A stretch of 63,899 nucleotides of DNA, the filler included, from Craspedostauros australis (Eukaryota), in NCBI GenBank assembly GCA_030167865.1. It is 18 parts of 18 records of this genome, joined end to end, with 100 filler letters (N's around TTAATTAATTAA, not from the genome) between each part and the next. Parts side by side here need not be neighbours in the genome. Positions count along the whole stretch, not along the records: positions 8,235 to 9,706 come from JALAGF010001692.1; 17 more parts are not named here. One strand, given 5' to 3'. Positions 5,606 through 53,504 of the stretch are shown one piece after another (within the stretch, counting starts at the first letter, position 1; each line of letters begins with the position of its first letter). A program made the position numbers and the translations under genes. The notes beneath the pieces are model-generated. The model saw only the letters and a program-made list of their open reading frames with translations. It had not been told where the DNA came from and did not search any database.

Positions 5606-5705
5606 NNNNNNNNNNNNNNNNNNNNNNNNNNNNNNNNNNNNNNNNNNNNTTAATTAATTAANNNNNNNNNNNNNNNNNNNNNNNNNNNNNNNNNNNNNNN
5701 NNNNN
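5606..5705. other. Artificial contig spacer N44-TTAATTAATTAA-N44 (first of 17)
   Basis: The same 12-mer, with stops in all six frames, sits in N runs at 5650, 8179, 9751, 10983, 15556, 17392, 40515, 42981, 45104, 47201, 49863, 51401, 53449, 54664, 59313, 60556 and 61734. Assembly artefact, not biology. Confidence 0.98.
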
Positions 5706-6308: not shown

Positions 6309-8456
6309 GAGTGGAGCAAGTCCCATGCAGCACGAACAACCAACATAACATAACTAGTGACCAACCGTAATACCATGTTCACACTACGTCGATGAACTGT
6401 CTATGGGAGTACCTTCTAGATTGTGAACATGTTATACGATGACTACTTGGACTACCAATGGAGTCCCATCGGAAAACGACGCCGAAAACGTATTTACCGC
6501 GCTTCCCAAGACATGGAGGGAGAAGTGTTCGCACGGACCGACTAAATGTAGCGTCGTGGATGTGACCCTTCGAACTACCCATTGCATTGTAGATCGTGCG
6601 CGTTTCTCGCCAAGTATCTTGCCAGGAGAGATTGTCCCGAGGAGCATTCCTCAGTCATTCACTATGGTCCTCCCGCCTGCAACAAGTGATTGCGACATCT
6701 CTGGTGTTGGTCTTGGTCCCTTGGTTGATGTGGAGCAACTTGGTGACTCGTGCTCCGCGGATCTTGACCAAGAATGAAATGAGATCCAACCAGCTTAACC
6801 AGCCCATGATGCACCTCGCTCGTACCATGCTGTCCCGTCCGCGGCATGAGACCTTCGCATACGAGCTACACTCGCCTTGCGCCCGAAGAGCAAGAGAGAG
6901 ACAGAGGGAGCGAGAGCGCGCAGAACAGGGACGCTCTCTGACCAGGCTGATGTCATCGTTGCTTCGCATGGCACCACACATGCAGCTTGGCCACACAACC
7001 CGCACGAATTGAGAACTACGCTTTCCCCTTGGCTCAATCCGTCTCGGTTCTGTTCTGTTCTGCACTGCATGGTGTTGCGGTCGCAGACCGCCCGCCCATG
7101 ACGATCGTCGATCGGCAGGAGCATCCGGGATGAGGCACCATGGCGAACAAGTCATGCCGGCACCACAGAGACCCTCTGAATCGCTTTTGCCTCGTGAGTC
7201 CATGACATCGAGTCTACCCATGCCAGATACAGATCTACGATGCCTTCTCGTAATGCCTGCTGGGGCAGGTACTGATGGAGCGATCGCGTCAGCTCTCTTT
7301 GTTCTGTTTGGGAATGTCGTTTGTATCCAAATTCTGGGAGGGTGCAGATTGTGTTCTGCAACTGTCTTGGTTGTGGTTGCGGTTGCAGTCGGGGGAGTGG
7401 TTGATACCGTGCGTGTAGAGCCAGTTTTTTTTGTCAAAAAGAAGAGCCTCGGCACCATAGATCGTAATTGCACGTGTGCTAGTGCGTGTGCTAGTGCGTG
7501 TCCATGGTAGTAATAGAGGGGTTCGAGTGGCCCCAGAACTTGGGTACTGGGACACGCCGGGCTGTCCGAATTCCAGGGGGAGCCCCGCTATTGAAACTTG
7601 TCTGGGCGCAATGGAGACAGCCACTTTCGTGGGGATTTAGGTCTTTGCAATGCCCTAGTGACGTCACGATTCGCTTTCTTCCTTCCCTGTTTCCCACACT
7701 GTTTCGTCAAACTGTTTGTTTCCTCATGGTACCAACATAGTTTTTCGCATTTTTGCCCAATCTGAACCAAAATGATTGATTCGATTGTCCAAATCTCTCT
7801 CTTTTTGCATCTCCTGTACGCGAATCATCGCATGATTCTTGTCTNTTCTTGTTTNTTTCTGTCAAAACANTNNNCACTGTTCAAAAATAAGGACGATAAT
7901 GCCAAAACTTGAGTACTTTGATCTGTGGTCTATTCGCGTTGTTGGCAANGAGGAGGAGCGTTGGTTTCTTGTGTGGCAATCCATGCTCAACTCTCAACAC
8001 AACTCATTCAGAAACTCGTTGACAACACTGCCAATTGACACTACCTCCTTCCTCCCTTCCTTCCAAGTCAACTTCATCTGCAGAGCAAGTATGTAGCTCA
8101 TGTGGAAGTGGGATCGAGAGTGGAAGAAGAAGCANNNNNNNNNNNNNNNNNNNNNNNNNNNNNNNNNNNNNNNNNNNNTTAATTAATTAANNNNNNNNNN
8201 NNNNNNNNNNNNNNNNNNNNNNNNNNNNNNNNNNTTGGTTGTGGCTGGAGCCGAGTTGTCGGAGGCAGACTCAAGCCACAAGATCGTTCAGACCAATGAA
8301 AACACTCAAATCATCTGCGTGTCGCGATGAACGATCTCTCCCATTCGTTGTGCTTCGACAGATGTCCAAACAGTCATTGATCTTTTCGATGATCTTCATC
8401 GTAGTCGCATCAGTCGAAGATTCTCATTTCAACGATGTCGCACAAACCAGAACCAG

Positions 8457-8724
8457 AGAGGACCATGCGACCAAGGGAAGGAGAACCATGCGATCAAGAG
8501 AAGGAGAGGACCATGCGATCAAGGGAAGGGGAGGACCATGCGATCAAGGGAAGGGGAGGACCATGCGATCAAGGGAAGGAGAGAACCATGCGATCAAGAG
8601 AAGGAGAGGACCATGCGATCAAGAGAAGGAGAGGACCATGCGATCAAGGGAAGGAGAGGACCATGCGATCAAGGGAAGGAGAGGACCATGCGATCAAGGG
8701 AAGGAGAGGACCACGCGATCAAGA
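8457..8724 (+). repeat. 25-nt minisatellite, about 11 copies (GACCATGCGATCAAGGGAAGGAGAG)
   Basis: The CCATGCGA core recurs at 8463, 8486, 8511, 8536, 8561, 8586, 8611, 8636, 8661, 8686 and 8711 (last copy CCACGCGA), with only A/G-type variants and no unique spacers. Confidence 0.95.
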
Positions 8725-8966
8725 CAATGACACACACCACTCAACCCCATACTCGAGCACATCAACGGCAGACATCGAATTGCCACTCATACTCATCACA
8801 CAGCGTATGGTACTCATAATAATACAAGCTATTGAAGACGCACCATCGATATCTCTGCCAAGGGTAACTCGAGCTACACTCTTCCTCGACAGCCAATCCG
8901 TCGCCAATCGTCCAACGTTCAACGTCCAACGTCAATCGTCCAGCAACCATCCACTATCCTCTCAAA

Positions 8967-9706
8967 ATGCCGAATGTTACAATCGATGAACTCATTGATG
9001 CTTCCTTCATAGGCAACTTGTCGGTGTTGAAAGAATGGAAGAAGCAGAACCAGACGCAGAATGAAGGAGTTGACATCAACTGCAAATACATCCTTGGTGC
9101 CACTCTCCTTCATGTGGCATGCTTGACCGGCCAGCTGGAGTGTGTGAAGTACCTCATCGAATCATGCAGGGCTGACATCAACTGCAAAGACGACAATGGT
9201 TCCACTCCCCTTCATGACGCATGCTCCAACGGCCAGCTGGAGTGTGTGAAGTACCTCATCGAATCATGCAGGGCTGACATCAACTGCAAANNNNNNNNNN
9301 NNNNNNNNNNNNNNNNNNNNNNNNNNNNNNNNNNNNAGCTGGAGTGTGTGAAGTACCTCATCGAATCATGCAGGGCTGACATCAACTGCAAAAACAACTC
9401 TGGTTCCACTCCCCTTCATGACGCATGCGCTACCGGCCAGCTGGAGTGTGTGAAGTACCTCATCAACTCATGCAGGGCTGACATCAACTGCAAAGACAGC
9501 AATGGTTCCACTCCCCTTCATTGGGCATGCCACAAAAGCGAGCTGGAGTGTGTGAAGTATCTCTTTGAATCATGCAGGGCTGACATCAACTGCGAAAACA
9601 ACTCTGGTTCCACTCCATGCTTCACCGGCCAGCTGGAGTGTGTGAAGTACCTCATCGAATCATGCAGGGCTGACATCAACTGCAAAGACAGCAATGGTTC
9701 CACTCC
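8967..9706 (+). CDS. Ankyrin-repeat protein with near-identical 34-aa repeats, 3'-truncated
   Basis: GSTPLHxAC..GQLECVKYLIESCRADINCK is repeated at least 6 times with a 102-nt period, after an N-cap MPNVTIDELIDASFIGNLSVLK. Confidence 0.93.
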
Positions 9707-9806
9707 NNNNNNNNNNNNNNNNNNNNNNNNNNNNNNNNNNNNNNNNNNNNTTAATTAATTAANNNNNNNNNNNNNNNNNNNNNNNNNNNNNNNNNNNNNN
9801 NNNNNN

Positions 9807-10938
9807 GGTGGGAAAAGTGAGACACCACCAGGAGGAGAATTTGTGAGCAAATCAACCCTCGCGAAACAACAAGCGAAAATCGAAGAATCGGTAACACAGA
9901 AACCGACGGAAACCAAGAGCGCGAGCGCACCAACAATGAAACAACGAATCAACATGGCGACATCAGCCAACGTGAACAAGCGACGCATCAAGGCGCCGAT
10001 GTTCAGTGGTGAACAGGAAGATTACAGCGCATAGGAGTCCCAAGCAAAGGCATACGCTCGTGCACAGAAGACGAGAGACGTGATGTTGGGCAAGACCAAG
10101 GTGCCAACAGTGAGTGAGATCGCGGCAGCCACCGGCGAGGCAAAGGAAGCGATGGAGGAAATCTACGAGCTGGGATGCGACTGCTTCAGTGATCTGATCC
10201 TCATGATGGATGCAGAGAAAGGAAAAGGCAAGCAGGCCATCCAGTACATCAACCAATGCGTCTCCGACGACTACCCCGAAGGAGATCCACACGCAGTGTG
10301 GAACGTTCTCGCGGAGAAGTTCCGTCCATCCGACGCAGTAACGAAGATCAAACTCAAGCGTCAGTTCAACAACGAAAATATGAAGAAAGACTCAGACCCC
10401 AACATATACATCACACGACTCGAGGGTCTACGATCACGTCTCCACGATGTCAAGTACACGATCACAGACGAAGAGATTATCATGCAGATCCTCAGCACGG
10501 TGAGCGTGGAATACAGAACCCACATCGTGAACTTCCAACACCAACTCACGTTCAATCCGGAACTGGTTACCATCAACACGATCAGAGGAGTACTCCGAAC
10601 AGCATACGCCACCCATCAAGGAGGCAAGGCGTACGTCGACGACTTCCAAGACAGTAACACGAAGGGCAACGACACCAGCTTCACAAGCACCGGTAACTTC
10701 AAGGGCACCTGTCACAACTGTGGTGTGTATGGTCACAGATCCGCCGATTGCCCAGAACGCAAGAAATTGAACAACAAGAAAAACAACAACAACAAGATGA
10801 ACGGAAAGCGCAACAACAACCGCAACAAAGGAAGCGGCTTCAACAGGAAGTGCGACTACTGTGGCATCTTCGGACACCGCGAGGCGGAGTGCCGAAAGAA
10901 GAAGTTCAACGAGAAGAAGAAGGCCGACGAGCAGGCCA
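9807..10938 (+). mobile_element. gag: Ty1/Copia gag fragment (family A, copy 1) with premature stop
   Basis: PMFSGEQEDYSA(W) gag N-terminus, a UBN2-like core (DPNIYITRLE..RL) and two CCHC knuckles (CHNCGVYGHRSADC, CDYCGIFGHREAEC). TAG at 10032-10034 where copy 2 has TGG. Confidence 0.9.
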
Positions 10939-11763: not shown

Positions 11764-12432
11764 ATGACGACAACATTCATGAAGTCGAAGAACCACTTGG
11801 GCATGGCGAGCTCCACAGTCCTGGACATTCCAGCAGAGCTGGCGTTCGATATCTTCTCCGACTTCAGCTGCCATCCACGAGTCTTCCGCATGTGCACTCG
11901 GATGGATCTCTTGTCCGGCCCTGGATGGAGATCTGCTGCTTTCAAGGAGATCGCCCGTGTTGCGAATCACACTGATGCTGCTGCTTTCAAGAGCAATCAA
12001 GGACCGCCTCGCTCGACACCGGTGGGATCGAGGTACAGAGCTGTGTTCGCTCCAGATGGTGGGTCCACTTACAAGACCATCCTCACGATCACAAAAGCGG
12101 ACACCGACCCAAAGAGGACGTGTTTCGAGCTCTCCGTGGTATTCACCATGGCGTACTGGACGGTGACGGCAACGCAAAGGTTTCAGCAATTTCCACACAG
12201 TACGAATACACCGCAGGATTCACCAAATGCAGTCGGCTCTTGCTGGGTGGGTACCACCTATGCATTGGTTCCAAACAACTGGCAGGGTCGAATCTACTTT
12301 TGGCTGCGCGCCAAGCAATTGCAAATAGATGCGGCGCAAGGGTTTCAGCAAGACATGCAAGACCTATGCGCGGAAGGAAAAAGGAGGATGAACGCAACGT
12401 CAATCCGACCATCGGGCGAGAAGCTTCCATGA
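11764..12432 (+). CDS. SRPBCC/polyketide-cyclase (START-like) fold protein, paralogue 1
   Basis: N-terminal STVLDIPAELAFDIFSDFSCHPRVF matches the SRPBCC start pattern, followed by VGSRY, beta-strands and a C-terminal helix. Clear paralogue at 13929. Confidence 0.55.
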   Translation: MTTTFMKSKNHLGMASSTVLDIPAELAFDIFSDFSCHPRVFRMCTRMDLLSGPGWRSAAFKEIARVANHTDAAAFKSNQGPPRSTPVGSRYRAVFAPDGGSTYKTILTITKADTDPKRTCFELSVVFTMAYWTVTATQRFQQFPHSTNTPQDSPNAVGSCWVGTTYALVPNNWQGRIYFWLRAKQLQIDAAQGFQQDMQDLCAEGKRRMNATSIRPSGEKLP

Positions 12433-13928: not shown

Positions 13929-14645
13929 ATGACGATGACATTCGTGAAGACGAAGGACCACATCGGCATGGCGATTTCCGCACTTGTGGACATTCCAGCG
14001 GATGAGGCTTTCGATGTCCTGGCGGACTTCAGCTGTCATCCGCGAGTCTTCCGCTTTTGCACACGGATGGATCCCATATCGACTCCTGATGTCGGAGTTG
14101 CTTCTGTCAAAGAGAGCGCTGCTCCTGCTCATTCTCTTCCACATAGAGCCCGTGTTGCAGATGACACTGTGCTCGAAGCCTCCAAAGAGGGCAACACAAG
14201 AGGACGCGCCGACCGTATACAAGTGGGCTCCAAGTACCGAACAGAGTTCGTACTTGATGGCAGACGCAGCTACAGCTCCGAATCCACAATCACAAGAGTG
14301 GATGCCGATCCAGAGAGAAAGTATTACGAAATAGCATGGGCAGCGACGCTAGGGCCCTGTGCATTGACAACAACGCAGACGGTGCATCGAGCGGAACCGG
14401 AGCAACACAAACAGCAACACAGGCACGCTACCAACGGAGATGGCCGGTGCCATGTCACCTTTTCGTACGCTTTGGTCCCCAACAACTGGCGAGGCCGAAT
14501 CTACTTGTGGTCCCATGGCAAACAAATGCGAAAAGATGTAGCGCGAAGCTTTCAGCTGGATATAAAGGATATTTGTGCAGAAGCCAAGAGGAGGAAGGAA
14601 AAGATAGTCGTATCAATTCAATCATCAGACGGGAAAGTTCTGTGA
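13929..14645 (+). CDS. SRPBCC/polyketide-cyclase (START-like) fold protein, paralogue 2
   Basis: Shares MT.TF.K.K.H.GMA, DFSCHPRVFR.CTRMD, YALVPNNW.GRIY and D.CAE.KRR with 11764-12432. Confidence 0.55.
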   Translation: MTMTFVKTKDHIGMAISALVDIPADEAFDVLADFSCHPRVFRFCTRMDPISTPDVGVASVKESAAPAHSLPHRARVADDTVLEASKEGNTRGRADRIQVGSKYRTEFVLDGRRSYSSESTITRVDADPERKYYEIAWAATLGPCALTTTQTVHRAEPEQHKQQHRHATNGDGRCHVTFSYALVPNNWRGRIYLWSHGKQMRKDVARSFQLDIKDICAEAKRRKEKIVVSIQSSDGKVL

Positions 14646-49918: not shown

Positions 49919-50991
49919 GGGTCCGATTGGGCCAGATACAGAGCCACATCTTGATTCCGATTCTGACAGGCAAGATGAAGCAGCGTTTGGTTGGACTTGT
50001 TGGTTCTTTTGAAGTCCACCTCCGCTTTGCCTGATTTCACCATGGATTCGATGAACTCTCTTGACGCAATCTTGCAGGCCAGATGGAACGGCGAGTCGCC
50101 ATCCTCATCCAAGATGTTGAGATTGAGATTGATGTCCTCGTTCAACTGATCCGCTCGGAACAGACGATTCATCACCTCCCAATCTTCGTACCAGCACACA
50201 GGATGGAATGGCGTTCGACCGTGGTTGTCTTGGATGTTGACGTCAAGACTTGAATGGTAGAGTTTGATGACGTAGTCCACCGTGTCGGGACGAAAACGTT
50301 NGCATGCATGATGAAGAGGCGTCATGCCTTCACTATCCTTGCTGTTAACGTCGATATTGACTAGCTTCGAGGTGGCGAGGTAGTCCAGGATGGAGGTTCC
50401 ACCGCGGATGCATGCAAAGTGGAGGAGCGTCTGATTCTCGCATCCTGTTGCGTTGCAGACTGTGTTGCTTGGATCGGCTTGCGCCAGCAACTCCATCGCT
50501 CGCACATGGTTGCGCCAACAAGCGATGTGAATCGGCATGTTGCCACGATTATCGCGGANNNNNNNNNNNNNNNNNNNNNNNNNNNNNNNNNNNNNNNNNN
50601 NNNNNNNNNNNNNNNNNNNNNNNNNNNNNNNNNNNNNNNNNNNNNNNNNNNNNCCGTTGTTTCTTGTGTTGGCATCGACATGAACTTGAGGCGATTCGGC
50701 CAAGTATGCCACGATGCTGACATCGCCGCGACAGCAAGCAGCATGCAGCAGCGTGTTCCCGTCGTTGTCTGTCAGGTTACCGTTGACTGGCAATGGGCTC
50801 ACTTCGATGTGACGTTTGACCGCATCAATGTCTCCGCTGTAGCAGGCTCTCGCTAGCGATGTTCTTCCACACATATCCCGTATAGCGACATCGACAGGAT
50901 GCTTCGGTTGGTCTGCTTTGAAGATGGGGTGGGTCGTCTCAAGATCTCCTTTCTGACCTGCATCGTGCGGAGCTTGGGGGGGATCTGACAT
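49919..50991 (-). CDS. Ankyrin-repeat protein, N-terminal part
   Basis: GRTSLARAC, GNTLLHAAC, GNMPIHIAC and GMTPLHHAC repeats. 49919-50300 is the reverse complement of 51457-51838. Confidence 0.88.
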
Positions 50992-51456
50992 TCTTGCGCA
51001 GTACCTAATGGCGTTGTGTTTGCATGGAGTGAGCGAATGCGTGAAGCGAGACATCGGTGTTAGCCTTGACGATGATGGATCATTCCTTGCTCTGTATGTC
51101 TGTCTGTCGGAACCATCCCAAGGCGCAGCCAGCCAACAAGTGAATCAACTGCGGGAGCAAGCGGCAAGCATCACTTACTTGGGTCGGATGTGGAAGATAG
51201 CCCTGGTGCGTGAACGGTAGGCAGCGGTGGATGCATGCGCGCTTCGCGGGGGAGTGAAGGTGGCTGCGAAGTACTTGGACGATCTATACTATGAGCCGGA
51301 AAAGGAAGAGCAGTTTCACCCGTCTGCTCCTGCTGGCGATATGATGAGAGATCACCNNNNNNNNNNNNNNNNNNNNNNNNNNNNNNNNNNNNNNNNNNNN
51401 TTAATTAATTAANNNNNNNNNNNNNNNNNNNNNNNNNNNNNNNNNNNNNNNNNNNN

Positions 51457-53387
51457 AACGTTTTCGTCCCGACACGGTGGACTACGTCATCAAACTCTAC
51501 CATTCAAGTCTTGACGTCAACATCCAAGACAACCACGGTCGAACGCCATTCCATCCTGTGTGCTGGTACGAAGATTGGGAGGTGATGAATCGTCTGTTCC
51601 GAGCGGATCAGTTGAACGAGGACATCAATCTCAATCTCAACATCTTGGATGAGGATGGCGACTCGCCGTTCCATCTGGCCTGCAAGATTGCGTCAAGAGA
51701 GTTCATCGAATCCATGGTGAAATCAGGCAAAGCGGAGGTGGACTTCAAAAGAACCAACAAGTCCAACCAAACGCTGCTTCATCTTGCCTGTCAGAATCGG
51801 AATCAAGATGTGGCTCTGTATCTGGCCCAATCGGACCCAACCGCCATTGACGTCAGTGCATCAGACAGCAGAGGCAACACGCCCATCCATTACGCGTGCA
51901 AAAATGGATCGATTGCTCTGTTGAGAGGCTTGGTGGTACTCGGTTTGAAGCAAGTCAATGACGCACTGAAAATCCATAACAAGGCCGGCGAGACACCGCT
52001 CCACTGTGCTTGTGCGTCTGGCAGCGTCCCTCTCGTCCGCTACCTCGTCGAATCACAGGAAGTCCAAGTCTATCTGGAGAGCAAAAATGAGGAAGGCGAT
52101 ACTCCACTCCACACTGCTTGCAAAGATATGAACGTGCATGTCGTGAGGTACTTAATTGAATCGAAGCGCGTGAATACCAGTATCCATACCAGAGACGAGA
52201 ACGGCAACACACCACTCCACGTTGCGTGCACCGAATACGACAATGATGTCCTGGAGTACCTAGTTGCGTCAGACGAAGCCAAGGCTATCATGAACTTGCA
52301 GAATGATGACGGCAACACCCCACTTCATCTTGCGCTCATGGAATATGATGCAGGAGTCCGCGAACGCATTTTTGACAATGAAGTTGGCAACATCAACCTC
52401 AATCTTCAAAACAACGACGGCAACACGGTGCTTCATCTTGCGCTCATGGAAGATGGTGGAGGAGTCAGCAACCGCATTTTTTACAATGAAGTTGGCAACA
52501 TCAACCTCACTCTTCAAAACAACGACGGCAACACCCCGCTTCATGTCGCAGCACAGTGTGGCAGGGAAGAGTGGCTCAAATGGTTGGACGAATCCAGCCC
52601 AGGTGACATTGATGGCAACATTCGAAACAAGAACGGCGACACACCACTCCACCTCGCATGTGCGAGTGCGGAGTATGCGGCTAGGGTCACATATGCAATT
52701 CTCTGCTCCAGCAACATGAAAGTGGACGTCAACGCAACGAACAACGATGGCAACACGCCCCTCCATTTCGCATTCGAAAATAGGCGCAGGGAGCTTTTCA
52801 CTGTGCTGCGCTGCTACAAGTACAATGGCAGATTCAATTGCAGAATTCAAAACAAGGATGGCGATACCCCATTCCATCGTGCTTGCACAAACCACGAGCA
52901 TGTTTGCGGCACCCCAAAGATGGAGCTCACAAGACTCTACGACTTAATCAAAACCGAGATCGTGCCCAATCACAATCTGGATCAGGCTTGCATCATCCAA
53001 AGAGGAGATGTGATGGACCGCTTGATCACAATGGCTCAGCCATTGGCGAACATCCAGAACAAGGCTGGCAACACCCCACTGCACAATGCATGCGAGCACG
53101 GCCTTGACGGAATCCTGCAGCGGTTGACTGGACCGGGCGAAGGAGCAGATGCTACGATTCAAAATCAGGACGGCGATACACCCTTGCACTTGGCGAGTAG
53201 GCAGAATGGAAGGAGATGCATGGAGTTACTGATCGATCCCAGACATGCTGTGAAATTTGATCTCAGCGTAAAGAACACAAGCGGTCAAACCGCGCGGGAA
53301 ATCGCGAAGGAGAAGGGCCACAATGGCATCGTCGAGTTGTTGGACGGGGTGCTGGTGCGTCCGGCAAAGCGCAGCAAGCCGAGCTGA
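51457..53387 (+). CDS. Ankyrin-repeat protein, C-terminal part of the same gene
   Basis: About 15 G(N/D)TPLH repeats, a C-cap (GQTAREIAKEKGHNGIVELL) and a basic tail RPAKRSKPS. Confidence 0.92.
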
Positions 53388-53504
53388 GATCGTAGCACCG
53401 AAGCNNNNNNNNNNNNNNNNNNNNNNNNNNNNNNNNNNNNNNNNNNNNTTAATTAATTAANNNNNNNNNNNNNNNNNNNNNNNNNNNNNNNNNNNNNNNN
53501 NNNN

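Follow-up and report, generated by a model that had tools for sequence, protein, structure and literature searches.

An internally conserved ankyrin-repeat array with variable positions on the predicted binding face on an incompletely resolved diatom contig

Described repeat arrays and their likeness to the diatom locus

Repeats with high internal conservation (HIC) are rare among proteins at large, according to passages of a study of fungal NOD-like receptors (Dyrka et al. 2014, PMC4986451). Such receptors carry ankyrin, TPR and WD arrays built from near-identical units with positively selected sites on the concave face, for which concerted evolution through unequal crossing-over is proposed (PMC4986451). 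To count as HIC in fungi, units must exceed 85% identity across 100 aa or more. Short-read assemblers drop or invent units in repeat arrays of this kind, as described in part of a later report (PMC12222747). Here we analyzed a window of 63,899 nt, by which we mean the whole stretch of DNA under study, from the diatom Craspedostauros australis, and compared an ankyrin array in it with these and other described systems.

By analogy, the HIC ankyrin/TPR/WD arrays of fungal NOD-like receptors are the closest documented kind, and the window array would work like them. In the parts of the fungal studies considered here, the arrays share with the window array units of 33-34 aa that are near-identical and vary mainly at a handful of residues in the inner helix and beta-hairpin of the concave face, as well as a poor recovery by short-read assembly (Ament-Velasquez et al. 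2025, PMC12222747). The fungal arrays lie C-terminal to NACHT or NB-ARC, whereas the window array is N-terminal and its visible part is without any other domain; the window units average 0.81 identity against the fungal cut-off of more than 85%; and the host is a diatom. Because no other domain is visible, identity is 0.81 and the locus permits no allele comparison, the window array is not classed as a receptor here. It is a further case of an already known repeat design, that of the fungal immune-type receptors.

TAL effector repeats are bacterial, have DNA as their ligand and are built of near-identical 102-bp (34-aa) units, each with a hypervariable residue pair. The window array is like them in its near-identical 102-nt/34-aa units and unlike them in fold, which is ankyrin only by Pfam; a TAL-effector-like reading was rejected, as both the Pfam matches and the fold are those of ankyrin repeats.

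DARPin libraries vary ankyrin positions 2, 3, 5, 13, 14 and 33. In the passages available from the ANK-N5C study, that library randomises positions 2, 3, 5, 10, 13 and 33, and the highest-entropy positions of natural ankyrin repeats are 2, 3, 5, 10 and 13, which form one continuous surface of beta-turn and helix 1 (PMC4308713). DARPins and ANK-N5C resemble the window array in combining a constant framework with variability at positions 2, 3, 10 and 13 (and 14). They differ from it in being synthetic and in randomising position 5, which in the window is a nearly invariant S (all readable full units, with A only in the degenerate first repeat); position 33 is also nearly fixed in the window, as K in four of five units, and the window unit has 34 aa with four Cys at core positions, against 33 aa in the designed library. 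The initial annotation had equated the beta-turn and post-AC patches with the positions randomised in DARPin libraries. The patches do fall at library positions, but this is the general ankyrin pattern, and position 5 hardly varies. The match is expected and not special, because these same positions are the variable ones of ankyrin repeats at large, on which library design is based. Five unrelated ankyrin-Roc proteins show this pattern too, with their entropy peaking at positions 1-3, 5, 10, 13 and 14.

The best longer protein hits to the window protein are 40-49% identical, with arrays joined to a Roc GTPase domain. Five of these ankyrin-Roc proteins (P0121, P0122, P0151, P0219 and P0130) are like the window array in their 34-aa units, in a framework of the form ...VKYLIE.C.CD.NCK... 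and in the N-terminal placement of the array; their mean unit identity is 0.62-0.77. They are unlike it in having a different cap, only 40-49% identity and a Roc domain. As this identity is no higher than that to DARPins, the ankyrin-Roc proteins are a lead on architecture and not evidence. In their own right, these five proteins hold 10-19 near-identical 34-aa ankyrin units followed by Roc, with some neighbouring units 97-100% identical, and look like HIC arrays outside fungi.

A parallel had also been drawn with the brown alga Ectocarpus. In the passages available on its LRR-ROCO and NB-ARC-TPR candidate receptors, each LRR or TPR repeat occupies one exon, and diversifying selection and reshuffling are reported for these stramenopile repeat domains (Zambounis et al. 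2011, PMC3341825). The likeness to the window ends there: Ectocarpus shuffles LRR/TPR exons, whereas window units 1-6 are contiguous ankyrin units in a single uninterrupted ORF.

The contig, the open reading frame and the unit map

The window (1-63899) is not one stretch of chromosome but a pseudo-molecule, in which 18 contigs measuring 1.1-23 kb are joined. It is split by 17 identical 100-nt linkers (5606-5705, 8135-8234, 9707-9806 and 14 more), each composed of 44 N, a 12-nt all-frame stop linker and another 44 N. Because the window consists of joined contigs, the adjacency of features across linkers is meaningless. The array lies on a small orphan contig, which also carries a minisatellite about 245 nt upstream of the ankyrin start codon (Table 1).

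Other contigs of the window were annotated alongside. The next contig encodes, at 10080-10937, the gag of a copia-type retrotransposon, which includes a CCHC zinc knuckle (Retrotran_gag_2, 7.5e-13; zf-CCHC, 3.1e-07). Two tandem paralogous ORFs of 222 and 238 aa lie on one contig, at 11764-12432 and 13929-14645; the 238-aa ORF matches Polyketide_cyc (START-like, 5.7e-06) and the 222-aa ORF is without a Pfam match. Contigs 49919-51356 and 51457-53404 jointly code for a single ankyrin-repeat protein of the ordinary, diverged type (636-aa ORF; Ank_2, 1.7e-74). The ankyrin genes at 49.9-53.1 kb were considered as relatives of the array and rejected, as their repeats are of the ordinary diverged kind (24-43% identity) and not of the same family. 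A 382-bp stretch is common to these two contigs at 100% identity and in opposite orientation, so that they are either an unmerged overlap or a haplotig; the unmerged overlap indicates that this part of the assembly is rough.

The ankyrin ORF, which nominally extends to 9758 when read on into the linker, is open through the array to the contig end, and the other frames are stop-rich. Tandem Repeats Finder reported a repeat at 9071-9706 with a period of 102, 6.4 copies and a score of 607. After an N-terminal cap there are at least six units of 102 nt (34 aa). A reading as a non-coding satellite was rejected on account of the open frame and the high profile scores. By-eye inspection of the N-terminus revealed no hydrophobic leader, and a receptor or signalling domain is not visible because the contig ends at 9706.

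Table 1. Features of the array-bearing contig, in window coordinates
Feature	Coordinates	Strand	Details
Array-bearing orphan contig (third of 18)	8235..9706	.	1,472 bp; 100-nt linkers on both sides
25-nt minisatellite	8456..8723	+	10.8 copies, 94% matches, score 466 (Tandem Repeats Finder)
Ankyrin ORF	8967..9706	+	ATG at 8967; 3' end open, runs off the contig
N-terminal cap and degenerate first repeat	8967..9134	+	64% identical to P0001 in a 108-aa alignment that takes in the cap; patch equivalents YIL 9087-9095, V 9114-9116, LT 9123-9128
Unit 1, 102 nt	9135..9236	+	DDN 9189-9197, D 9216-9218, SN 9225-9230
Unit 2	9237..9338	+	Intact framework; variable half is N
46-N block	9291..9336	.	Unit columns 55-100, first to last regularly variable column
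Unit 3	9339..9440	+	NNS 9393-9401, D 9420-9422, AT 9429-9434
Unit 4	9441..9542	+	DSN 9495-9503, W 9522-9524, HK 9531-9536
Unit 5, 90 nt	9543..9632	+	NNS 9597-9605, FT 9621-9626
Unit 6, partial, 74 nt	9633..9706	+	Beta-turn DSN 9687-9695

Two of the units carry replacements in the framework. Those of unit 4 are E>N, G>S and Q>E. Unit 5 has I>F and K>E together with a synonymous TAC>TAT change, and an in-frame 12-nt deletion takes out LHxA of its inner helix; the AlphaFold model of this unit still contains a 4-residue inner helix. The loss of four inner-helix residues may reflect decay or misassembly.

The breaks in the array fall at particular unit columns. The contig edge cuts unit 6 at column 74, the exact point at which the normal and the 12-nt-deleted unit forms part ways. 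The N block preserves the 102-nt register exactly; it had been placed at 9291-9335 and read as spanning the variable segment of one repeat, which is correct and fits an unresolved bubble, although its true extent is one position longer. We infer that the N block is an unresolved bubble and the contig end a tangle, both breaks lying at branch points of the repeat graph. The tiny orphan contig, the N block, the 12-nt deletion and the breaks at branch points make the printed copy number and unit order unreliable. The locus is an incompletely resolved short-read assembly.

Fold, clustering of differences and relatives

Two N-free pieces of the array were searched against Pfam. Both matched Ank_2, with E-values of 5.9e-21 (75.3 bits) and 4.1e-37 (127.1 bits) against a cut-off of 27.3, and Ank, Ank_3, Ank_4 and Ank_5 likewise scored above their own cut-offs. 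In the PDB there were 477 matching sequences at E <= 1e-3, the best being a DARPin (3.4e-85). An AlphaFold model built with a 44-row alignment had a pLDDT of 96.4 and a pTM of 0.88, with a helix pair in every unit; a run without alignment (pLDDT 45.5) was not used. Foldseek comparison of the model with DARPins and consensus ankyrins gave TM scores of 0.83-0.92 and rmsd values of 1.1-2.1 A at 37-48% identity. The predicted model has the helix-turn-helix and beta-hairpin solenoid fold.

With D taken as position 1, the patches occupy positions 1-3, 10 and 13-14 of the ankyrin repeat. The model places the residue after H midway along inner helix 25-31, the residues after AC at the helix end and the beta-turn patch in the loop. 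The patches are thus predicted to sit on the binding (concave) face of the ankyrin fold, the third patch included, a placement made from the alignment and secondary structure and not from coordinates. The initial annotation had called for the variable sites to be mapped on a predicted structure, where a position off the concave face would have spoken against it; the sites fall in the loop and the inner helix, that is, on the binding face.

Analysis of the framework revealed a 51-nt string that occurs six times in the window, each time inside the array; four copies are exact and the other two have 2 and 3 mismatches. No match to it was found in 100 shuffles of the sequence. Units 1, 3 and 6 have zero framework differences. 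Near-identity of the framework had been put at about 55 nt; the near-identity was borne out, and the length is 51 nt. The framework had also been described as frozen, which holds within the array, where units 1, 3 and 6 are identical, but not in the public run X1 (described below), which carries synonymous variants as well as R>E, D>N and Q>H replacements.

The differences between units are clustered. Among the 102 unit columns, 21 are variable, and these comprise 13 of the 18 patch columns and 8 of the 84 columns outside the patches (Fisher P = 1.2e-7, an optimistic value because the patches were defined from the same data). The patch residues given in the initial annotation (YIL/DDN/NNS/DSN/NNS/DSN at the beta-turn, V/D/D/W after TPLH and LT/SN/AT/HK/FT after AC) were all confirmed. 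Summed over unit pairs, the framework had a pS of 0.052 and a pN of 0.039 (ratio 0.75), with pS coming wholly from unit 5. The patches had a pN of 0.436 and a pS of 0.211 (pN/pS 2.06) across five readable units, one of them partial, which yield a handful of codons and few, non-independent pairs. Patch pN is about 8 times framework pS, so recent neutral duplication is insufficient to explain the pattern. Patch pS is raised too (0.21), and therefore positive selection and a homogenisation of the framework that spared older patch codons fit equally well.

Amino-acid identity between the five readable units averaged 0.81 (range 0.71-0.93), and nucleotide identity was 82-97%. The patch alleles had been thought to recur in different combinations. 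This was not borne out, as only beta-turn alleles recur (NNS twice and DSN twice), both times in the order NNS then DSN, and a duplicated two-unit block fits this recurrence as well as free recombination does.

Relatives of the protein were searched for in several collections. The sole true relative among 5.8 billion proteins was P0001, a 138-aa transcript fragment labelled Craspedostauros, a diatom. It is 63-64% identical to the window protein and shares its MPN start, its cap and nearly the same framework; the cap alone is only 58% identical (counted from the alignment), and the framework is conserved at the protein level. A 108-aa N-terminal query returned 4 protein hits among 31 candidates, with P0001 again the only true relative. 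In a search of representative proteins, 238,037 hits passed E <= 1e-3; the top 150 were without exception giant ankyrin proteins, 811-6,572 aa long. Matches in the ESM Atlas were confined to generic ankyrin clusters. A metagenome locus (L001, the 1 confirmed of 587 pattern matches) proved a false lead, being by eye a 452-aa membrane-protein ORF with no ankyrin repeat. A search of the literature for such arrays in diatoms found no paper, and the passages retrieved mention only ankyrin family expansion or silica-related ankyrin proteins.

We also examined the contigs of the public run X1 (Logan contigs; word share 0.17 with the window), whose library type is a guess. Alignment to 8740-9706 at 85% likeness was obtained for 513 of 30,610 contigs, of which 193 fit two places; 59 were at least 99% identical, 106 were 95-99%, 203 were 90-95% and 145 were below 90%. 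Depths in this run are not copy numbers, and some variant contigs, both those of low depth and those arising where depth is high, may be sequencing errors. Variant details come from 8 of the 526 aligned pieces, those listed. Among the pieces listed, several contigs swap exactly the codon pair after AC for differing 6-letter strings, and at least 2 contigs have alternative sequences from cap to first repeat that by eye resemble the P0001 cap. Framework variants were synonymous (TGC>TGT, GCT>GCG and GAC>GAT) or replacements (R>E, D>N and Q>H). At 9167 the form not present in the window was the majority, with 3,982 of 5,344 in summed depth. The unique 5' part of the locus was not found exactly in X1, where the best cap contig had 3 differences in 117.

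The synonymous framework variants of X1 indicate that the synonymous identity of the array reflects recent common descent or homogenisation and not codon constraint. Taken together, these matches indicate that the ankyrin units are real sequences whose existence does not depend on this assembly. Judging from the sequence variants, we take it that this species or a close relative has a family of several genes in which the unit occurs in many forms.

Explanations of the array and its meaning

We consider the locus to hold the 5' portion of a genuine protein-coding gene, with an N-terminal cap and an ankyrin array of high internal conservation that would be homogenised by concerted evolution and carry variable binding-face residues; we put the probability of this reading at about 0.75. 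Recent unit duplication together with unequal crossing-over or gene conversion would keep the units near-identical, synonymous sites included, while differences would persist or build up at the tip of the beta-turn (positions 1-3) and along one side of the inner helix, at positions 10, 13 and 14. These positions correspond to the canonical ankyrin binding groove, and the protein would present a constant solenoid scaffold with contact residues specific to each unit. Its most likely role is that of an intracellular protein-binding module, and the gene would be one of a small, lineage-restricted family of diatom genes, comprising several paralogues and a large number of unit variants. Against this reading stand the small number of readable units (five, one of them partial), a mean unit identity of 0.81 that is below the 85% fungal HIC criterion, a unit order that may be a walk through the assembly graph given that contig and N-block edges lie at branch points, and a single true relative in 5.8 billion proteins.

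The possibility that deserves most weight besides this one, although we hold it to be less than evenly balanced, is a strong assembly artefact, in which the assembler would have strung a chimeric array together from a collapsed repeat graph, and the order, number, 12-nt deletion and part of the frozen look of this array would be absent from any one molecule. The placement of the array on a 1,472-bp orphan contig among unplaced pieces, an N block that covers exactly columns 55-100, a contig end at the branch point of the deletion and the unmerged, fully identical 382-bp overlap between neighbouring contigs of the window are all consistent with it, as is the tendency of short-read assemblies to omit or create units in such repeats, described in part of the fungal report (PMC12222747). 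The independent run X1 nevertheless contains the framework exactly (the 59 contigs at 99% or more) along with related units, and the P0001 transcript, which comes from another diatom, is built to the same plan. In addition, all six frameworks of the array are of one subtype (R-A-D) whereas about three quarters of X1 is of another subtype, and a random walk would have mixed them. Alternatively, the array could be an ordinary recently expanded gene or a decaying copy, with neutral or degenerative differences and no selection for diversity. The in-frame deletion of four inner-helix residues in unit 5, the framework replacements in units 4 and 5 and the surroundings of unplaced, transposon-rich contigs, such as that with the copia-type gag, point in this direction. 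We regard it as very unlikely, as neutral change would not place 13 of 21 variable columns in 18 of 102 positions and would predict about as many synonymous framework changes, the frame is open through all units, and the framework is kept at the protein level in P0001 despite a cap identity of 58%.

The initial annotation had proposed a diversifying, immune-like repertoire, with many loci or alleles shuffled by unequal crossing-over or conversion, positive selection on binding residues and a role in recognition of non-self or pathogens. The patch pN/pS of 2.06, a patch pN eight times the framework pS and the many variant contigs of X1, with alternative codon pairs after AC and more than one cap variant, would all agree with such a repertoire. 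The design is also like that of the sensor repeats of fungal NLRs in the passages available on them (PMC4986451), and the nearest long proteins are ankyrin-Roc proteins, a class proposed as brown-algal receptors in part of the Ectocarpus study (PMC3341825). Set against this, the contig stops at 9706 and up to there shows neither a NOD, Roc or TIR domain nor any other domain for signalling; ankyrin repeats generally vary at these same positions; the test for selection has too little power; identity to ankyrin-Roc proteins (40-49%) is on a par with that to DARPins; and the literature search found no paper tying diatom ankyrin arrays to recognition. We therefore consider an immune-like repertoire unlikely. 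A bolder form of it is a multi-locus diatom family of capped HIC ankyrin arrays, whose hypervariable groove would be reshuffled by unequal recombination into a natural combinatorial binder library serving as an intracellular recognition repertoire, possibly with a hidden signalling domain; this we likewise hold to be doubtful. The reading as the 5' part of a real gene with a homogenised, capped ankyrin array is the one we prefer.

A constant scaffold with varying contact residues is thought to be a route by which fungal receptors diversify rapidly, and it is also how engineers make binders. The window in its present form demonstrates only the existence of such a gene and the failure of short-read assembly to resolve it. 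If the design does occur as an expanded family in diatoms, it would provide a concrete candidate for the means by which these algae recognise partners, bacteria or parasites.
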